From assembly GCF_003334785.1 (NCBI RefSeq), contig NZ_QOWV01000018.1: a DNA stretch of 64,000 nt; one strand, given 5' to 3'. This stretch comes from Escherichia coli. Lineage in GTDB: Bacteria; Pseudomonadota; Gammaproteobacteria; Enterobacterales; Enterobacteriaceae. A model generated the notes under the pieces. That model saw only the letters and a program-made list of their open reading frames with translations, was not told the DNA's origin and did no database searches. Each line of letters opens with the position of its first letter. Within the stretch, counting starts at the first letter, position 1. The position numbers and the translations under genes are program-made. This document shows, piece after piece, positions 4,271 to 49,148 of the stretch.

Positions 4271-6460
4271 ATGCTTTACAAAGGCGACACCCTGTACCTT
4301 GACTGGCTGGAAGATGGCATTGCCGAACTGGTATTTGATGCCCCAGGTTCAGTTAATAAACTCGACACTGCGACCGTCGCCAGCCTCGGCGAGGCCATCG
4401 GCGTGCTGGAACAGCAATCAGATCTAAAAGGGCTGCTGCTGCGTTCGAACAAAGCAGCCTTTATCGTCGGTGCTGATATCACCGAATTTTTGTCCCTGTT
4501 CCTCGTTCCTGAAGAACAGTTAAGTCAGTGGCTGCACTTTGCCAATAGCGTGTTTAATCGCCTGGAAGATCTGCCGGTGCCGACCATTGCTGCCGTCAAT
4601 GGCTATGCGCTGGGCGGTGGCTGCGAATGCGTGCTGGCGACCGATTATCGTCTGGCGACGCCGGATCTGCGCATCGGTCTGCCGGAAACCAAACTGGGCA
4701 TCATGCCTGGCTTTGGCGGTTCTGTACGTATGCCACGTATGCTGGGCGCTGACAGTGCGCTGGAAATCATTGCCGCCGGTAAAGATGTCGGCGCGGATCA
4801 GGCGCTGAAAATCGGTCTGGTGGATGGCGTAGTCAAAGCAGAAAAACTGGTTGAAGGCGCAAAGGCGGTTTTACGCCAGGCCATTAACGGCGACCTCGAC
4901 TGGAAAGCAAAACGTCAGCCGAAGCTGGAACCACTAAAACTGAGCAAGATTGAAGCCACCATGAGCTTCACCATCGCTAAAGGGATGGTCGCACAAACAG
5001 CGGGGAAACATTATCCGGCCCCCATCACCGCAGTAAAAACCATTGAAGCTGCGGCCCGTTTTGGTCGTGAAGAAGCCTTAAACCTGGAAAACAAAAGTTT
5101 TGTCCCGCTGGCGCATACCAACGAAGCCCGCGCACTGGTCGGCATTTTCCTTAACGATCAATATGTAAAAGGCAAAGCGAAGAAACTCACCAAAGACGTT
5201 GAAACCCCGAAACAGGCCGCGGTGCTGGGTGCAGGCATTATGGGCGGCGGCATCGCTTACCAGTCTGCGTGGAAAGGCGTGCCGGTTGTCATGAAAGATA
5301 TCAACGACAAGTCGTTAACCCTCGGCATGACCGAAGCCGCGAAACTGCTGAACAAGCAGCTTGAGCGCGGCAAGATCGATGGTCTGAAACTGGCTGGCGT
5401 GATCTCCACAATCCACCCAACGCTCGACTACGCCGGATTTGACCGCGTGGATATTGTGGTAGAAGCGGTTGTTGAAAACCCGAAAGTGAAAAAAGCCGTA
5501 CTGGCAGAAACCGAACAAAAAGTACGCCAGGATACCGTGCTGGCGTCTAACACTTCAACCATTCCTATCAGCGAACTGGCCAACGCGCTGGAACGCCCGG
5601 AAAACTTCTGCGGGATGCACTTCTTTAACCCGGTCCACCGAATGCCGTTGGTAGAAATTATTCGCGGCGAGAAAAGCTCCGACGAAACCATCGCGAAAGT
5701 TGTCGCCTGGGCGAGCAAGATGGGCAAGACGCCGATTGTGGTTAACGACTGCCCCGGCTTCTTTGTTAACCGCGTGCTGTTCCCGTATTTCGCCGGTTTC
5801 AGCCAGCTGCTGCGCGACGGCGCGGATTTCCGCAAGATCGACAAAGTGATGGAAAAACAGTTTGGCTGGCCGATGGGCCCGGCATATCTGCTGGACGTTG
5901 TGGGCATTGATACCGCGCATCACGCTCAGGCTGTCATGGCAGCAGGCTTCCCGCAGCGGATGCAGAAAGATTACCGCGATGCCATCGACGCGCTGTTTGA
6001 TGCCAACCGCTTTGGTCAGAAGAACGGCCTCGGTTTCTGGCGTTATAAAGAAGACAGCAAAGGTAAGCCGAAGAAAGAAGAAGACGCCGCCGTTGAAGAC
6101 CTGCTGGCAGAAGTGAGCCAGCCGAAGCGCGATTTCAGCGAAGAAGAGATTATCGCCCGCATGATGATCCCGATGGTCAACGAAGTGGTGCGCTGTCTGG
6201 AGGAAGGCATTATCGCCACTCCGGCGGAAGCGGATATGGCGCTGGTCTACGGCCTGGGCTTCCCTCCGTTCCACGGCGGCGCGTTCCGCTGGCTGGACAC
6301 CCTCGGTAGCGCAAAATACCTCGATATGGCACAGCAATATCAGCACCTCGGCCCGCTGTATGAAGTGCCGGAAGGTCTGCGTAATAAAGCGCGTCATAAC
6401 GAACCGTACTATCCTCCGGTTGAGCCAGCCCGTCCGGTTGGCGACCTGAAAACGGCTTAA
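4271..6460 (+). CDS. fadB: Fatty acid oxidation complex alpha subunit (enoyl-CoA hydratase / 3-hydroxyacyl-CoA dehydrogenase), 729 aa
   Basis: The ORF track opens at 4145, but the recognised N-terminus [31 protein letters not shown] starts at ATG 4271, preceded by ggagactgac as ribosome-binding site, giving 729 aa. Confidence 0.93.
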
Positions 6461-7639: not shown

Positions 7640-7822
<183 letters not shown>

Positions 7823-13277: not shown

Positions 13278-15520
<2,243 letters not shown>

Positions 15521-30965: not shown

Positions 30966-31856
30966 ATGGATGCAAAACAAACGCGGCAGGGCGTATTACT
31001 CGCTCTTGCCGCTTATTTTATTTGGGGTATAGCGCCAGCGTACTTCAAGTTGATTTACTACGTGCCCGCCGATGAAATCCTGACGCATCGCGTGATCTGG
31101 TCGTTTTTCTTTATGGTGGTGCTGATGAGCATTTGCCGCCAGTGGTCCTATTTAAAAACGCTGATTCAGACGCCACAGAAAATTTTTATGCTGGCAGTCT
31201 CTGCCGTGCTGATTGGTGGCAACTGGCTACTGTTTATCTGGGCGGTGAACAATCACCATATGCTGGAAGCGAGCCTTGGTTACTTTATTAACCCGCTGGT
31301 GAACATTGTGCTGGGGATGATTTTCCTCGGCGAGCGATTCCGCCGGATGCAATGGCTGGCGGTGATTCTGGCGATATGTGGCGTGTTAGTCCAGCTGTGG
31401 ACTTTTGGTTCGCTACCTATTATCGCGCTGGGACTGGCATTTAGTTTTGCCTTCTACGGTCTGGTACGCAAGAAGATTGCCGTTGAAGCGCAAACCGGCA
31501 TGTTAATCGAAACCATGTGGCTGCTGCCCGTGGCGGCAATTTACCTGTTTGCTATTGCCGACAGCTCAACCAGCCATATGGGGCAAAACCCGATGTCGCT
31601 GAATTTACTGCTGATCGCCGCCGGTATTGTCACTACCGTACCGCTGTTGTGTTTTACCGCCGCTGCCACGCGCTTGCGTCTCTCAACGTTAGGCTTTTTC
31701 CAGTACATTGGCCCGACGCTGATGTTCCTGCTGGCTGTGACGTTTTATGGTGAAAAACCGGGTGCCGATAAGATGGTGACTTTCGCCTTTATTTGGGTGG
31801 CGCTGGCAATTTTTGTGATGGATGCGATTTATACGCAGCGTAGAACGTCCAAATAA
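30966..31856 (+). CDS. rarD: EamA/DMT-family transporter RarD (296 aa)
   Basis: ORF 30966..31856; MDAKQTRQGVLLALAAYFIWGIAPAYFKLIYYVPADEILTHRVIWSFFFM... Confidence 0.92.
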   Translation: MDAKQTRQGVLLALAAYFIWGIAPAYFKLIYYVPADEILTHRVIWSFFFMVVLMSICRQWSYLKTLIQTPQKIFMLAVSAVLIGGNWLLFIWAVNNHHMLEASLGYFINPLVNIVLGMIFLGERFRRMQWLAVILAICGVLVQLWTFGSLPIIALGLAFSFAFYGLVRKKIAVEAQTGMLIETMWLLPVAAIYLFAIADSSTSHMGQNPMSLNLLLIAAGIVTTVPLLCFTAAATRLRLSTLGFFQYIGPTLMFLLAVTFYGEKPGADKMVTFAFIWVALAIFVMDAIYTQRRTSK

Positions 31857-31950
31857 AAAATAAATATATTCTGAAAAAATATGCCGACTCTTGCATGAGA
31901 GTGGGCATATTGCCATGCTGACCGGAGACTCATACAAGGATGTAAAATTT

Positions 31951-32331
31951 ATGTTACGTATATTTATCCCAACATCTAACGGTAAGATTTCCAGACGTCG
32001 TTATATATTTTCATTTATTTTAATAAATTTCATTTTTGCCTTTCTTATTATCTTTTTTAACGATGGAGAAGCAGGCTTTCTTGTTATAGTCTCTACCATC
32101 GTACTCCATTATCTCGTCATCAACATGAATTGCCAGCGACTCCGTGATAGTGGTTTCATCTATATAAAAACTTATGTTTTTGGTACATTAGCAGTATATA
32201 TCATCTCTATCATCACAATGATAGCCGAAGATTTTGCCTGTTCAGGCAATGGTTCGATGATTTTTTTGATTTGTTATTTTTCCACTTTCAGTATGCTAAT
32301 GCTTGCACCTACTGATTCATCAAAACAATAG
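31951..32331 (+). CDS. yigG: Small inner-membrane protein YigG, function unknown (126 aa)
   Basis: Start taken at the internal ATG 31951 ([20 protein letters not shown]...); the ORF track opens at 31891. Two or three hydrophobic segments; markedly AT-rich coding sequence. Confidence 0.75.
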
Positions 32332-32344
32332 TTATGGAGTATTT

Positions 32345-32725
32345 ATGAGTAAGGAATATATGAACGATGGTTCATTAAGTGAAAAATGGAAATACCGATT
32401 TAATTTTTATGATCAACATGGTTTTCCTGGATTCTGGGGGGCAACACCAGAATATAAAGCAGCATTTAAAGCATTAAAAGTAAGACAACGCTTAACTATT
32501 CAAATGAATTTCATTGCTTTCTTCTGTTCCTGGATATATTTATTTGTCCTGGGGTTATGGAAAAAAGCAATTATAGTTCTATTACTTGGTATTCTATCTC
32601 TATTTGTTGGTGCACTAATTGGCGTTAACATTCTGGGAATTGCCGTAGCAGCCTATGTTGCTGTTAACACGAACAAATGGTTCTATGAGAAAGAGGTAAA
32701 AGGGTTAAATACCTGGAGCCTTTGA
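32345..32725 (+). CDS. yigF: Small membrane protein YigF (DUF2628-like), function unknown (126 aa)
   Basis: Start taken at ATG 32345 (MSKEYMNDGSLSEKWKYRFNFYDQHGFPGFWG...), preceded by ggagt; the ORF track opens at 32303. AT-rich; C-terminal hydrophobic segments. Confidence 0.75.
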   Translation: MSKEYMNDGSLSEKWKYRFNFYDQHGFPGFWGATPEYKAAFKALKVRQRLTIQMNFIAFFCSWIYLFVLGLWKKAIIVLLLGILSLFVGALIGVNILGIAVAAYVAVNTNKWFYEKEVKGLNTWSL

Positions 32726-32731
32726 ATAACA

Positions 32732-32769
32732 GGTGGCTTAGCCAGACTAAGCCACCGCTCTCGTTTTTT
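32732..32769. terminator. Stem-loop terminator between convergent yigF and corA
   Basis: Hairpin ggtggcttag-ccaga-ctaagccacc (32732..32756), then gctctcg and T6 on the plus strand; overlaps the corA stop. Confidence 0.65.
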
Positions 32770-33718
32770 ACAACCAGTTCTTCCGCTTAAAGTACAGATA
32801 CGGTGCCAGGCCCGCGAGGATCATAAAGATAATCGCGCCAGGGTAGCCGAAGCTCCACTTCAGTTCTGGCATAAACTCAAAGTTCATGCCATAGCTGGAA
32901 GCAACGAGCGTCGGCGGCAGGAATACCACGGATACCACCGAGAAGATTTTGATGATGCGGTTCTGCTCGATGTTGATAAAACCCATTGCCGCCTGCATCA
33001 GGAAGTTCACCTTCTGGAACAGGGATTCGTTATGCGGCAGCAGGGATTCGATATCTCGCAGGATTTCACGCGCCTGCTCCAGTTGCCCACCCGGTAAACG
33101 CGCTTTACGCACCAGGAAGTTGAGCGCGCGCTGGGTATCCATCAGACACAGGCGAACTTTCCAGCCGATATCTTCCAGTTCCGCCAGAGTGGAGAGCGCC
33201 TCGTCGTACTCATCGCCCTGATGCCCTTCCATAATCACCCGGCTCAACTGCTCCAGGTCGCTATAGATATTTTCAATTTCATCTGCCAACTGTTCGATTT
33301 TGGTTTCGAACAGATCCAGCAGCAACTCGTAGGCGTTACCGTCTACCATCGACTGGCTACGGGCACGCATACGATACAGACGAAAAGCGGGCAGTTCACG
33401 CTCACGCAGAGTAAACAGACGACCATCACGGATGGTAAATGCCACAGTGGAGTTACCGGCGTGATCTTCCGCATCTTCAAAGAAGAAGAAGGAGTGAATA
33501 TGCAGGCCGTCGTCGTCTTCAAAGAAACGTGCCGATGCTTCGATGTCTTCCAGTTCCGGGCGGGTTGCCAGGCTCTGGCCAAGTTCAGATTGTACGCGCA
33601 GTCGCTCGTCGTCGTCCGGTTCGACAAGATCAATCCATACTGCATTTACAAGGGGTTGTGACTCTTCGACTTCCAGCCGGGTCAGTCGGTTATTTTCCAG
33701 TTGAAATGCGCTCAGCAT
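32768..33718 (-). CDS. corA: Magnesium/cobalt transporter CorA (316 aa)
   Basis: The ORF track starts at 33733; the recognised start [20 protein letters not shown] is at 33718. GMN motif present ([11 protein letters not shown]). Confidence 0.93.
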
Positions 33719-48517: not shown

Positions 48518-48724
48518 AAAAAAACGCCTGCTCTTATTACGGAGCAGGCGTTAAAACAGGTCTGTATGACAACAAGTGGGTGCTTCACTCAACGTTGTGT
48601 CCATGGTGTCTGATGAGGCATAAGCGACATCTGTCAGTGGACGATAAGCACCGTAAACGGCTCTGCGTCATTCCGGAGTTTATGAGGCACTAAGGCGAAC
48701 ATAAGAGATGGAATGAGCATCTAC
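48518..48724 (-). ncRNA. glmZ: GlmZ small RNA (SraJ/RyiA), post-transcriptional activator of glmS
   Basis: Minus strand reads GUAGAUGCUCAUUCCAUCUCUUAUGUUCGCCUUAGUGCCUCAUAAACUCCGGAAUGACGCAGAGCCG...CAUACAGACCUGUUUUAACGCCUGCUCCGUAAUAAGAGCAGGCGUUUUUUU, which I recognise as GlmZ. It ends in an intrinsic terminator (hairpin gcctgctc-cgtaataa-gagcaggc plus U7), has a -10-like CATAAT just upstream (plus 48731..48736), and sits in the known hemY-aslA intergenic location. Confidence 0.88.
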
Positions 48725-49148
48725 TCGTTTATTATGCCACAGAGAATCGGGAAATAACATCCCTTAACACTTGTTATGAGATAATTCTGTAATCCTCTTT
48801 GCTTCCTGAGTAATAACTTCCTGAGTGAATATTTAACCTGAGCTTGATCCTACACATACTTATTATGAATGATAAAATTCATTCAATTAATAACACATAT
48901 ATTAATTGCCGTTAAAACTAAAAACAGCATCAATAATCAACGCGATATAATAAACCTGCCTTACATATCAACTGCGCCAGAGGTAGGATTGAAAACGCTC
49001 TCCTGATTTTCCAATTCATTTTCTGGATAAATAAATAATTTATTTTTGTCACTATTATTTATGTAATCATCCTGTCAGGGAGAGGGATCTCAATTATCAA
49101 TGCTTAATTACGTCATCATTTTGATGACATGAAACCGGAGCATTTTGC

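Follow-up and report, generated by a model that had tools for sequence, protein, structure and literature searches.

Positions 31857-32767 of the window, by which we mean the whole 64 kb stretch of Escherichia coli DNA analysed here, make up the exact gap between the stop codons of two convergent core genes. The left flank is rarD (30966..31856, plus strand), annotated in RefSeq as an EamA-family transporter, which is conserved and serves as the left homology arm of the slot described below; its stop codon ends at 31856. The conserved right flank is corA (32768..33718, minus strand), which encodes a Mg2+/Co2+ channel and whose stop codon lies at 32768. The gap opens with an AT-rich spacer (31857..31950, plus strand) that is the presumed promoter region of the two enclosed genes and falls within a published promoter island and EPOD, and continues with yigG (31951..32331) and yigF (32345..32725), both on the plus strand, each encoding 126 aa, separated by 13 nt and each preceded by a Shine-Dalgarno-like AAGGA or GGAG. 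It is closed by a hairpin (32732..32756, both strands), which the preliminary description had called strong and bidirectional and which indeed folds with a stem of 10-11 bp at -17.5 kcal/mol (z -4.2; 0/200 shuffles fold as well) and scores as terminator-like on both strands; judged by its placement and score, this intrinsic terminator, common to the convergent yigF and corA, would end the transcripts of yigGF and corA alike. No Rfam family, tRNA included, reached its gathering score at the locus, and an RNA element within the islet was discarded as a candidate since Rfam in E-value mode returned three sub-threshold matches at chance level only (E 0.46-0.75).

Measurement upholds what the preliminary description had judged by eye, namely an AT-rich islet with AT-biased codons between rarD and corA. 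The 911 bp have a GC content of 0.347, whereas the mean over the window is 0.528 (sd 0.031 at a window size of 911 bp; z -5.8), which makes the interval the lowest-GC stretch in the 64 kb, with 0.14% of windows as low and all of these overlapping it. GC3 is 0.315 in yigG and 0.283 in yigF (z -6.5 and -7.2 against the 51 long ORFs of the window), as compared with 0.62 in rarD and corA and 0.59 +/- 0.04 over the genes of the window, so that the bias extends beyond amino-acid content to the choice of codons. The conspicuous T/A run that had been cited earlier maps to 32008-32062, inside yigG, where it encodes the first transmembrane (TM) helix. AT content and codon usage strongly off those of the host, one of the marks of an H-NS-silenced acquired islet, are thus both present.

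What lies in this interval is yigG-yigF, an AT-rich, H-NS-silenced operon that had been documented before in E. coli K-12 and that codes for two small proteins of the inner membrane, and what we state about H-NS occupancy and transcriptional silence in K-12 is drawn from the literature. The operon is listed as promoter island 4000528_663, bound by H-NS in all ChIP studies ("A", that is all studies, in Table 1 of Panyukov & Ozoline 2013, PMC3661553), published data of the kind that the preliminary description had proposed to consult, and the same source reports it as predicted to be foreign by two methods (Nakamura 2004; Lawrence & Ochman 1998). An H-NS-repressed, AT-tract-dependent intragenic promoter has been described inside yigG (Singh/Warman/Grainger, PMC7229825), and the primers of that study map exactly to 32102..32251 (plus strand) of the window, while the yigGF region as a whole appears as a small silenced EPOD, or protein-occupancy domain (Freddolino, Fig 7C of PMC8282354). 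In Salmonella, deletion of yigG gave envelope-related phenotypes, affecting attachment, aggregation and growth under chlorine, which were modest and only partly complemented (PMC3579871). As a listed example of the promoter islands and H-NS-silenced islets of E. coli K-12, yigGF is confirmed here in its AT-richness and variable presence, and differs from other such islets in being very small (0.9 kb), in carrying no mobility genes and in sitting at a slot that different genera have in common; this last point makes its behaviour that of a long-lived polymorphic locus, not of a recent island. The polymorphism of the slot, with its alternative cassettes, and the conservation of the gene pair are what the present analysis adds to the published record.

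Both products fit the earlier characterization as hydrophobic proteins of about 126 aa with no assigned function, and profile and structure searches found no characterised or solved homologue for either. YigG belongs to the NCBIfam equivalog NF008474 (PRK11371), which it matches over residues 1-126 with 255.6 bits (E 1e-76; curated cut-off 217), and it is a 4-TM distant relative of DUF805. The best Pfam match, to DUF805 (PF05656), is sub-threshold (i-Evalue 0.023, 15.6 bits) and does not make YigG itself a member; among 20 members of the YigG family, 3 match DUF805 at E <= 1e-3 and 12 at E <= 0.1. Its AF2 model (pLDDT 89) has helices at 15-38, 42-66, 72-92 and 100-118, and in a Foldseek search of afdb50 nearly all hits beyond its own family are DUF805 proteins (E 0.1-1, TM 0.5-0.77), a likeness to be read in light of the fact that bundles of four membrane helices are a common, unspecific fold. 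The YigG family is restricted to Enterobacteriaceae, and from 1.84 billion proteins its profile retrieves only 30 cluster representatives, so that most of DUF805 lies out of its reach. With DUF805, a family of YhaH/YhaI-type inner-membrane proteins in E. coli, YigG shares the four TM helices. The DUF805 motif R-L-H-D-x-G resembles the R-x-R-D-x-G loop that follows TM2 of YigG, from which the S-G-W-W continuation of the motif is missing.

YigF, in turn, is a member of DUF2628 (PF10947), with a match of 40.1 bits (E 5.2e-10) over model positions 9-91 of 93, and its homologues carry precomputed PF10947 assignments. It combines a basic, non-hydrophobic N-terminal portion of ~50 aa with a hydrophobic C-terminal half (AF2 model, pLDDT 87), and its motifs KW..RF.FF, LGLWKK and N..YYxKEVKG are kept as far as Pseudomonas. 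The stand-alone DUF2628 membrane proteins of Pseudomonas, Pantoea, Budvicia and others share these motifs and a similar size (125-143 aa against 126); they are, however, solitary, sit in unrelated contexts and show a mild GC deficit, whereas YigF of Enterobacteriaceae is paired with a YigG-like protein at the corA slot, markedly AT-rich and polymorphic. What literature we found on the function of DUF805 or DUF2628 consists of incidental mentions only. The equal length of YigG and YigF raised the question of paralogy, which was rejected on the basis of an absent BLASTP match and an HHalign probability of 0.2%.

The locus proved to be strongly polymorphic among 5,426 complete E. coli genomes, and a cassette that is absent from, or replaced in, close relatives, a further mark of an H-NS-silenced acquired islet, is evident from the tally. 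Intact yigGF (at >=80% coverage) is found in 2,964/5,426 genomes (~55%), 556 of which carry a 77%-identity allele; a further 994 give partial matches only, the listed examples being a ~50-nt remnant, and 1,468 give no match. At least three unrelated AT-rich cassettes use the rarD/corA slot in E. coli: yigG with yigF; a 99-aa minus-strand membrane ORF (hyp99) with a distant YigG relative (ORF128); and a DUF3289/DUF943 pair, a colicin-M-like T6SS effector and its immunity protein. The second of these occurs in 1,464/5,426 genomes (~27%) and has no DUF2628 gene, and neither Pfam nor NCBIfam supports a relationship of hyp99 to DUF805 or DUF2628; the third occurs in 2,633-2,759 of the 5,426 genomes, or about half, and is absent from the window itself. 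All alternative cassettes, that with the soluble DUF3289 effector included, have a GC content of 0.33-0.45 in every genus.

The cassettes occur either singly or stacked behind scars of the flanking genes. The 137-nt 3' segment of corA (32768..32904, minus strand, in the window) is present in other strains as a second copy, corA', between yigGF or the alternative cassette and the DUF3289/DUF943 cassette (96.35% identity over 137 nt by blastn; loci L002 and L005-L007), so placed that DUF3289/DUF943 often sits behind a scar bearing the RefSeq name "CorA family ... missing N-terminus"; in Atlantibacter there are also rarD' scars. Homology with the haplotype of the alternative cassette stops at 31845, within the last rarD codons, and resumes exactly at the corA stop codon in all haplotypes. 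Throughout, corA itself was matched in 5,426/5,426 genomes, and in each E. coli locus examined the CorA protein matches that of K-12 fully or at 99-100% identity. Damage to the cassette is also seen, in the form of IS1 insertions (H1, H17), an internal stop in yigG of strain 19SZHZ869Rt, and many truncated protein clusters.

Where yigGF is intact, it falls into two allele lineages in E. coli, separated by a dS of 0.70 in yigG and 1.25 in yigF, as against 0.08-0.18 in the flanks. The divergence is sharply limited to 31860-32740, with identity to the ST131-type allele dropping from 0.98 at 31751-31850 to 0.86 at 31851-31950. For YigF, identity reaches 99% between the ST131 type and E. albertii and 84% between K-12 and Salmonella, but only 70% between K-12 and the ST131 type; the two E. 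coli lineages diverge more from each other than K-12 does from Salmonella, and E. albertii has one of them too. Allele exchange at the slot is ongoing and not a single old event. Between the E. coli alleles dN/dS is 0.20 for yigG and 0.15 for yigF, values that indicate purifying selection on both genes. In the YigG alignment, sequence variation is densest from TM1 through the first periplasmic turn to where TM2 begins.

Across Enterobacteriaceae, at least seven genera keep a YigG-like gene and a DUF2628 gene together beside the 3' end of corA, and an AT-rich YigG-like/YigF-like pair occupies the same slot in other Escherichia spp., Salmonella, Superficieibacter, Atlantibacter and Kosakonia. 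The ORFs remain intact, with conserved length and motifs, at 25-58% identity across genera. In one enterobacterial contig LacI and enolase-family genes separate the pair, whose genes overlap by 4 nt, from a rarD fragment on the contig's edge, and in E. whittamii yigG-yigF is followed by an orphan DUF943 gene without an effector. Pairing is not obligatory, as follows from the YigF homologues of Pseudomonas, Pantoea and other genera, which have no YigG-like neighbour, and from the YigG relative that stands without a DUF2628 gene in the alternative cassette. The old horizontal acquisition proposed in the preliminary description fits this distribution as well as the published record (PMC3661553, PMC7229825, PMC8282354). 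GC and codon usage differed strongly from the flanks and no characterised homologue was found, so that neither result that would have counted against the preliminary description was obtained.

Searches for a vehicle or a recognisable functional class were negative. The features of an integrase-mobilised island were not found: the interval and its flanks hold no integrase or recombinase gene, and the locus has no tRNA and no flanking direct att repeat, a search for transposon-like or att repeats having given short chance repeats only. A phage origin was rejected likewise: IMG/VR, scanned with the YigF family because the YigG alignment diverged too much for such a scan, gave one marginal match at a contig end, and the only tblastn matches in the "phages" collection are unannotated records of 1.6-3.5 kb that resemble host DNA. 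The plasmid collection gave six matches, all non-mobilizable, two of them 4.9 Mb long and one a Salmonella record with recQ-pldA-rarD-corA-uvrD, which by size and content are chromosomal DNA, and a plasmid-borne yigGF was dismissed on this ground. The earlier remark that no partner gene marks the islet as a toxin-antitoxin or phage-defence pair holds, in that PADLOC and PHROGs gave 0 matches each for YigG, YigF and the proteins of the alternative cassette and NCBIfam gave no defence or TA match. The idea that yigGF is itself a T6SS effector-immunity pair was also set aside, both products being polytopic membrane proteins with no adjacent effector, and no effector or toxin gene adjoins yigGF in any locus examined.

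We consider it rather probable (roughly 0.6) that the yigG-yigF operon is an AT-rich accessory cassette, one of several interchangeable ones lodged between the 3' ends of convergent core genes, whose proteins form an inner-membrane complex. Since the cassettes begin and end where the flanking ORFs stop, and integrase, tRNA and att-type repeats are absent, the best explanation for the swapping of cassettes is homologous recombination in the conserved rarD and corA flanks, and for the stacked arrangements it is homology-anchored illegitimate joining. YigG and YigF would act together as a small accessory complex, YigG being modelled as an N-in/C-in 4-TM bundle with a conserved RxRDxG loop predicted to be cytoplasmic and a conserved E..C...G loop predicted to be periplasmic, and YigF probably presenting its conserved basic DUF2628 motifs to the cytoplasm. 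Such a complex may serve the envelope in a niche-specific and dispensable way and be expressed only on relief of H-NS silencing; the K-12 cassette, according to the literature, is H-NS-coated and transcriptionally silent, with spurious intragenic promoters. Loss, truncation, IS1 interruption and pseudogenisation in many strains argue for weak selection.

Several other readings have to be weighed against this one, and the most far-reaching is that the slot is an islet of inter-bacterial competition, in which YigG/YigF and the alternative cassette are orphan immunity-type determinants against T6SS, CDI or colicin-like membrane toxins, kept diverse by frequency-dependent selection. Its boldest form, in which the rarD/corA gap is a recombination-driven competition slot and the YigG family and DUF2628 make up a new membrane-embedded class of immunity or resistance proteins under balancing selection, could have as its target membrane-acting toxins or another agent entering via the inner membrane; we regard either form as improbable, even if it leads the alternatives. 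The orphan DUF943 gene after yigG-yigF in E. whittamii speaks for it, as do the allele lineages, deep and trans-specific yet under purifying selection, the concentration of YigG variation around TM1 and the first periplasmic turn, and the modelled nature of the products as small polytopic inner-membrane proteins. Immunity proteins against pore-forming colicins and membrane-targeting T6SS/CDI toxins are small inner-membrane proteins with 3-4 TM helices, and resemble YigG and YigF in size, topology, AT-richness and allelic diversity, a likeness of use as a lead only. YigG and YigF, however, match no such protein in sequence or fold, no known immunity or defence model recognises them, no cognate toxin gene lies nearby, and the broad, solitary occurrence of the YigF family in non-toxin contexts (Pseudomonas, Pantoea) looks more like a general membrane function. 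A further point in favour is that the DUF3289/DUF943 pair, described as an orphan T6SS cassette (Geller et al. 2024, PMC11148199), holds this very slot in roughly half of the E. coli genomes; it does so in Atlantibacter too and is, like yigGF, a two-gene, same-strand, AT-rich unit; but yigGF has no soluble enzyme-like effector, the two cassettes have no sequence relationship, and the sharing of a slot can be positional only. In the literature searched, no paper was found that treats the rarD/corA slot as a T6SS islet.

Slightly less probable still is that the two ORFs are decaying xenogeneic DNA of no functional relevance, which survives solely through being made harmless by H-NS, as the published silencing of the K-12 cassette, the IS1 insertions and internal stop, the many truncated clusters and the roughly 990 genomes with the 5' remnant alone might suggest. 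This is countered by the low dN/dS (0.15-0.20 across a dS of 0.7-1.25), by the intact, motif-bearing ORFs across genera, by AF2 models that are confident from shallow alignments, and by a gene order that is kept, down to a 4-nt overlap in one lineage. We give very little weight to YigG/YigF being accessory or regulatory partners of CorA (or RarD), which would explain the kept adjacency: in all enterobacterial loci recovered the pair adjoins the 3' end of corA, even with a different left neighbour as in L088, and the two transcription units share a terminator, but DUF3289/DUF943 and hyp99 with ORF128 take the same position, ~45% of E. coli do without intact yigGF while corA is universal, YigF homologues outside Enterobacteriaceae are not beside corA, and the genes are convergent rather than co-transcribed, with yigGF silenced and corA expressed. 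That the AT-richness reflects nothing but the composition of hydrophobic proteins, without foreign origin, draws on the abundance of Phe, Ile, Leu, Asn, Lys and Tyr, with their AT-rich codons, in YigG and YigF, and is already contradicted by the GC3 values (0.28-0.32, as against 0.62 in the likewise polytopic rarD), by a non-coding spacer that is equally AT-rich, and by the low GC of the cassette with the soluble DUF3289 effector.

The H-NS-silenced yigGF islet was already known, and the direct value of finding it again is low. The comparative picture, on the other hand, offers a handle on two orphan families, the DUF805-like YigG and DUF2628, by presenting them as a travelling pair in a slot that also takes a T6SS cassette, with allele lineages older than the species. 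The rarD/corA locus is, moreover, a compact natural example of convergent gene ends acting as homology arms for AT-rich cargo without mobility genes, in which the corA' and rarD' scars stand as a record of the joins.

The interval 31857-32767, which spans exactly the distance from the rarD stop codon to the corA stop codon, lies in a K-12-like E. coli chromosome where the genes run pldA, yigI, rarD, yigG, yigF, corA (on the minus strand), yigE, and uvrD. The preliminary description had portrayed it as an AT-rich islet encoding two membrane proteins of about 126 aa and closed by a strong bidirectional hairpin, and the measurements bear this out: yigG (31951-32331) and yigF (32345-32725) are plus-strand ORFs of 126 aa, each with a Shine-Dalgarno-like motif 5' of the start, forming an operon with a spacing of 13 nt, and the hairpin (32732-32756; fold -17.5 kcal/mol, z -4.2) scores as terminator-like on either strand. 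The compositional anomaly is pronounced, with a windowed GC of 0.347 versus 0.528 for the window (z -5.8), the minimum of the 64 kb, and a GC3 of 0.315 in yigG and 0.283 in yigF versus 0.62 in rarD and corA and a reference value of 0.594 +/- 0.043 among 51 long ORFs of the window. This codon bias is not due to hydrophobic amino-acid content, because rarD, which also encodes a polytopic membrane protein, has a normal GC3. The sole other stretch of the window with GC near 0.33 (48700-49150) is an ORF-poor spacer, bordered on its left by the GlmZ sRNA (48518-48724, minus strand; Rfam RF00083) and on its right by a 551-aa sulfatase-like ORF starting at 49149; Rfam matches over the gathering score also include the Erse sRNA (14915-15166), naRNA4 (CssrE; 7692-7769), and a four-tRNA gene cluster (52348-52781), all on the minus strand.

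The islet is a known feature that had been read correctly: its genes are annotated, and publications already describe it as AT-rich, silenced by H-NS, and of predicted foreign origin. The yigF/yigG interval serves as the example figure and a table entry in the paper on 'promoter islands', where it is predicted foreign according to both Nakamura et al. and Lawrence & Ochman, in agreement with the earlier suggestion of horizontal acquisition, and is H-NS-bound in all ChIP studies (PMC3661553). The Grainger laboratory dissected six intragenic promoters repressed by H-NS, one of which sits in the islet (PMC7229825); the published primers map to 32102-32251 within yigG. An extended protein occupancy domain, small and silenced, spans yigF, yigG, and rarD (PMC8282354). 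These three papers are the source of the statements here that the islet is coated by H-NS, is transcriptionally silent, and carries spurious intragenic promoters.

A megablast search of 5,426 complete E. coli genomes with the islet region recovered the flanks in every one and most of the islet in only 2,963-2,964, so that its presence is variable. Haplotypes were defined from annotated example loci and blastn breakpoints. Haplotype a is the K-12 arrangement (rarD, yigG yigF, corA), and haplotype b, the ST131 type found in 556 genomes, has the same order with an allele 77% identical across the islet. Haplotype c carries, between yigF and corA, a scar termed corA' (a 137-nt copy of the corA 3' end, 96% identical) followed by DUF3289/YPO3983 and DUF943, a colicin-M-like T6SS effector/immunity pair, whereas haplotype d retains a yigG 5' remnant ending at 32038, followed by DUF3289, DUF943, and corA. 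Haplotype e breaks from rarD at 31845 and contains a 99-aa minus-strand membrane ORF, an unannotated 128-aa plus-strand ORF, corA', DUF3289, DUF943, and corA; its cassette occurs in 1,464/5,426 genomes, O157:H7 among them. The DUF3289/DUF943 cassette was counted in 2,633-2,759 of the complete genomes, and about 990 match the islet only partially. In every haplotype blastn homology is regained exactly at the corA stop codon, and in all genera examined the slot cargo has a GC of 0.33-0.45 versus 0.50-0.55 in the flanks. Neither an integrase nor a tRNA nor att-like repeats turned up at the locus in annotation, repeat, and Rfam searches, and the claim that no toxin-antitoxin or phage-defence partner is present held, as defence, TA, phage, and mobility signatures were absent from our searches. 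IS1 insertions lie inside slot cassettes of several strains (BLAST hits H1, NZ_CP073949; H17, NZ_CP125883; H96, NZ_CP021722), and yigG is annotated as a pseudogene with an internal stop in strain 19SZHZ869Rt (locus L005, 4252-4632); both observations point to dispensability.

When K-12 is aligned with an ST131-type strain, identity drops from 95-100% to 65-86% precisely over about 31860-32740, with a dS of 0.70 in yigG and 1.25 in yigF versus 0.08-0.18 in yigI, rarD, and corA. As dN/dS is 0.20 (yigG) and 0.15 (yigF), these are two functional alleles under purifying selection, separated by inter-genus-scale divergence. The ST131-type YigF shares 99% identity with that of E. albertii, and K-12 YigF is 84% identical to the Salmonella protein, 83% to that of Superficieibacter, and 70% to the other E. 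coli allele; chimeric YigG proteins (P0006) also occur. At the level of sequence comparison, this pattern indicates repeated replacement via the conserved flanks or trans-specific polymorphism. A single ancient insertion of yigGF is a misfit with it. Within rarD, whose dS is 0.175, K-12 versus ST131-type identity dips to 89-94% at 31350-31700 between segments of 96-100%, possibly a tract of recombination that travelled along with the islet allele.

The 128-aa ORF adjoining corA' (plus strand; 5213-5599 of locus L006 from E. coli EC7518, 5216-5602 of locus L007 from O157 AR-0427) is a distant YigG relative, with 29% identity (pairwise E 2e-6), an NF008474 match under the cut-off (E 7e-6), and the RxRDxG motif; it is unannotated in these RefSeq records, and about 27% of the E. 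coli genomes carry it. Its partner, a hydrophobic minus-strand ORF of 98-99 aa (locus L006 4701-5000; locus L095 4623-4919), is 58% identical between these two loci across species and matched nothing in Pfam, NCBIfam, or PADLOC; in another species this cassette stands alone between rarD and corA.

A genome-collection scan by YigF alignment and subsequent tblastn searches using the E. coli proteins revealed conservation of the pair beyond E. coli: the order rarD, YigG-like, YigF-like, corA occurs in E. coli, E. whittamii, E. albertii, Salmonella, Superficieibacter, Atlantibacter, and two Kosakonia species, with protein identities of 84-97% in the flanks, 30-58% for YigG, and 46-84% for YigF. 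A metagenomic enterobacterial contig encodes a 25%-identical YigG relative and then a DUF2628 gene (4-nt overlap) adjoining the corA 3' end, with LacI-type and enolase-superfamily genes 5' of the pair and rarD represented by just a fragment at the edge of the contig. In Atlantibacter subterranea, an 88-aa corA' and a 70-aa rarD' adjoin each other in the space separating yigF from DUF3289 (L014, 6432-6907), which looks like the scar expected from a tandem join of two different slot alleles; E. coli, unlike it, keeps only the 137-nt corA' fragment. In E. whittamii, a DUF943 gene (L011, 6487-6975; 79% identical to that of E. coli) directly follows yigG-yigF without DUF3289 and looks like an orphan immunity gene. 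Outside Enterobacteriaceae, YigF homologues are 35-46% identical, solitary, and in unrelated contexts. The most distant YigG/DUF805-like relative (P0181; 3773-5399 of metagenomic contig SRR26015881_114, which is plasmid- or ICE-like) lies just downstream of Hha, H-NS homologue, and Pmp3-family genes, with topoisomerase and ParA genes nearby and no DUF2628 partner. Records of the chromosomal yigG-yigF locus in the 'phages' collection (OR845793.1, OR851002.1; 1.6-3.5 kb, unannotated) and among 'plasmids' (NZ_CP141089.1, NZ_CP134663.1, NZ_LN868946.1; 4.9 Mb, or bearing recQ-pldA-rarD-corA-uvrD) look like mislabelled host DNA.

Neither protein has a solved or characterised homologue in our remote-homology and structure searches, consistent with the initial statement that no function is assigned, and a literature search found no published mechanism for YigG, YigF, DUF805, or DUF2628; deleting yigG in Salmonella modestly alters attachment, aggregation, and the chlorine-stress phenotype, with partial complementation (PMC3579871). 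AF2 models of both are confident despite shallow alignments. YigG, which matches its own NCBIfam equivalog model (255.6 bits, cut-off 217), has four helices (15-38, 42-66, 72-92, 100-118; pLDDT 89), with Lys/Arg grouped at the N-terminus and in the 63-73 loop and Asp/Glu in the 38-40 and 93-94 loops, from which the positive-inside rule predicts an N-in/C-in topology. Among the 20 sequences of a family alignment, R63 and R65 never vary and R15, N58, D66, G68, G101, L116, and P120 are nearly invariant; C97 is invariant among the closer members. Since the family is tiny (30 cluster representatives in 1.84 billion proteins; all named family-level Foldseek matches in Enterobacteriaceae), matches Pfam DUF805 below threshold, and has DUF805 models as its weakly scoring structural neighbours outside the family, the most fitting description of YigG is that of a DUF805-like protein that is divergent and restricted to one lineage. 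YigF belongs to Pfam DUF2628 (E 5e-10), and its model (pLDDT 87) has a basic N-terminal region of about 50 residues with short helices, then a hydrophobic half; the motifs KW..RF.FF, LGLWKK, and N..YY.KEVKG are kept as far as Pseudomonas. Comparison of the two families found them unrelated to each other.

We favour, at a probability of roughly 0.6 and with most of the uncertainty in protein function, a composite explanation that joins a swap-prone slot to a YigG-YigF inner-membrane complex. Homologous recombination in rarD and corA would exchange the cassettes, homology-anchored illegitimate joins would produce the stacked haplotypes, and the corA'/corA direct repeat would permit the DUF3289/DUF943 cassette to be lost in a RecA-dependent manner; YigG and YigF would form a small complex whose envelope role is dispensable and niche-specific. 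The most interesting alternative, that they are immunity-type determinants of a competition islet, draws its support from co-location with the slot's effector/immunity cassette and from the diversity pattern of the alleles, but a toxin gene adjoining yigGF was never found and DUF2628 is broadly distributed and solitary, and we regard it as improbable. A functional link to CorA is less likely still, because unrelated cassettes use the same position and intact yigGF is missing from almost half of the E. coli genomes, whereas corA is matched in all, its protein being 99-100% identical to that of K-12 at every E. coli locus examined.

Added here are the slot haplotypes with counts, the alleles shared across species boundaries, the conserved pairing of YigG-like with DUF2628 genes, the scars corA' and rarD', and the unannotated YigG relative. 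These results are ordinary in kind, describing a variable islet at a conserved hotspot, and they offer testable leads on two orphan protein families.
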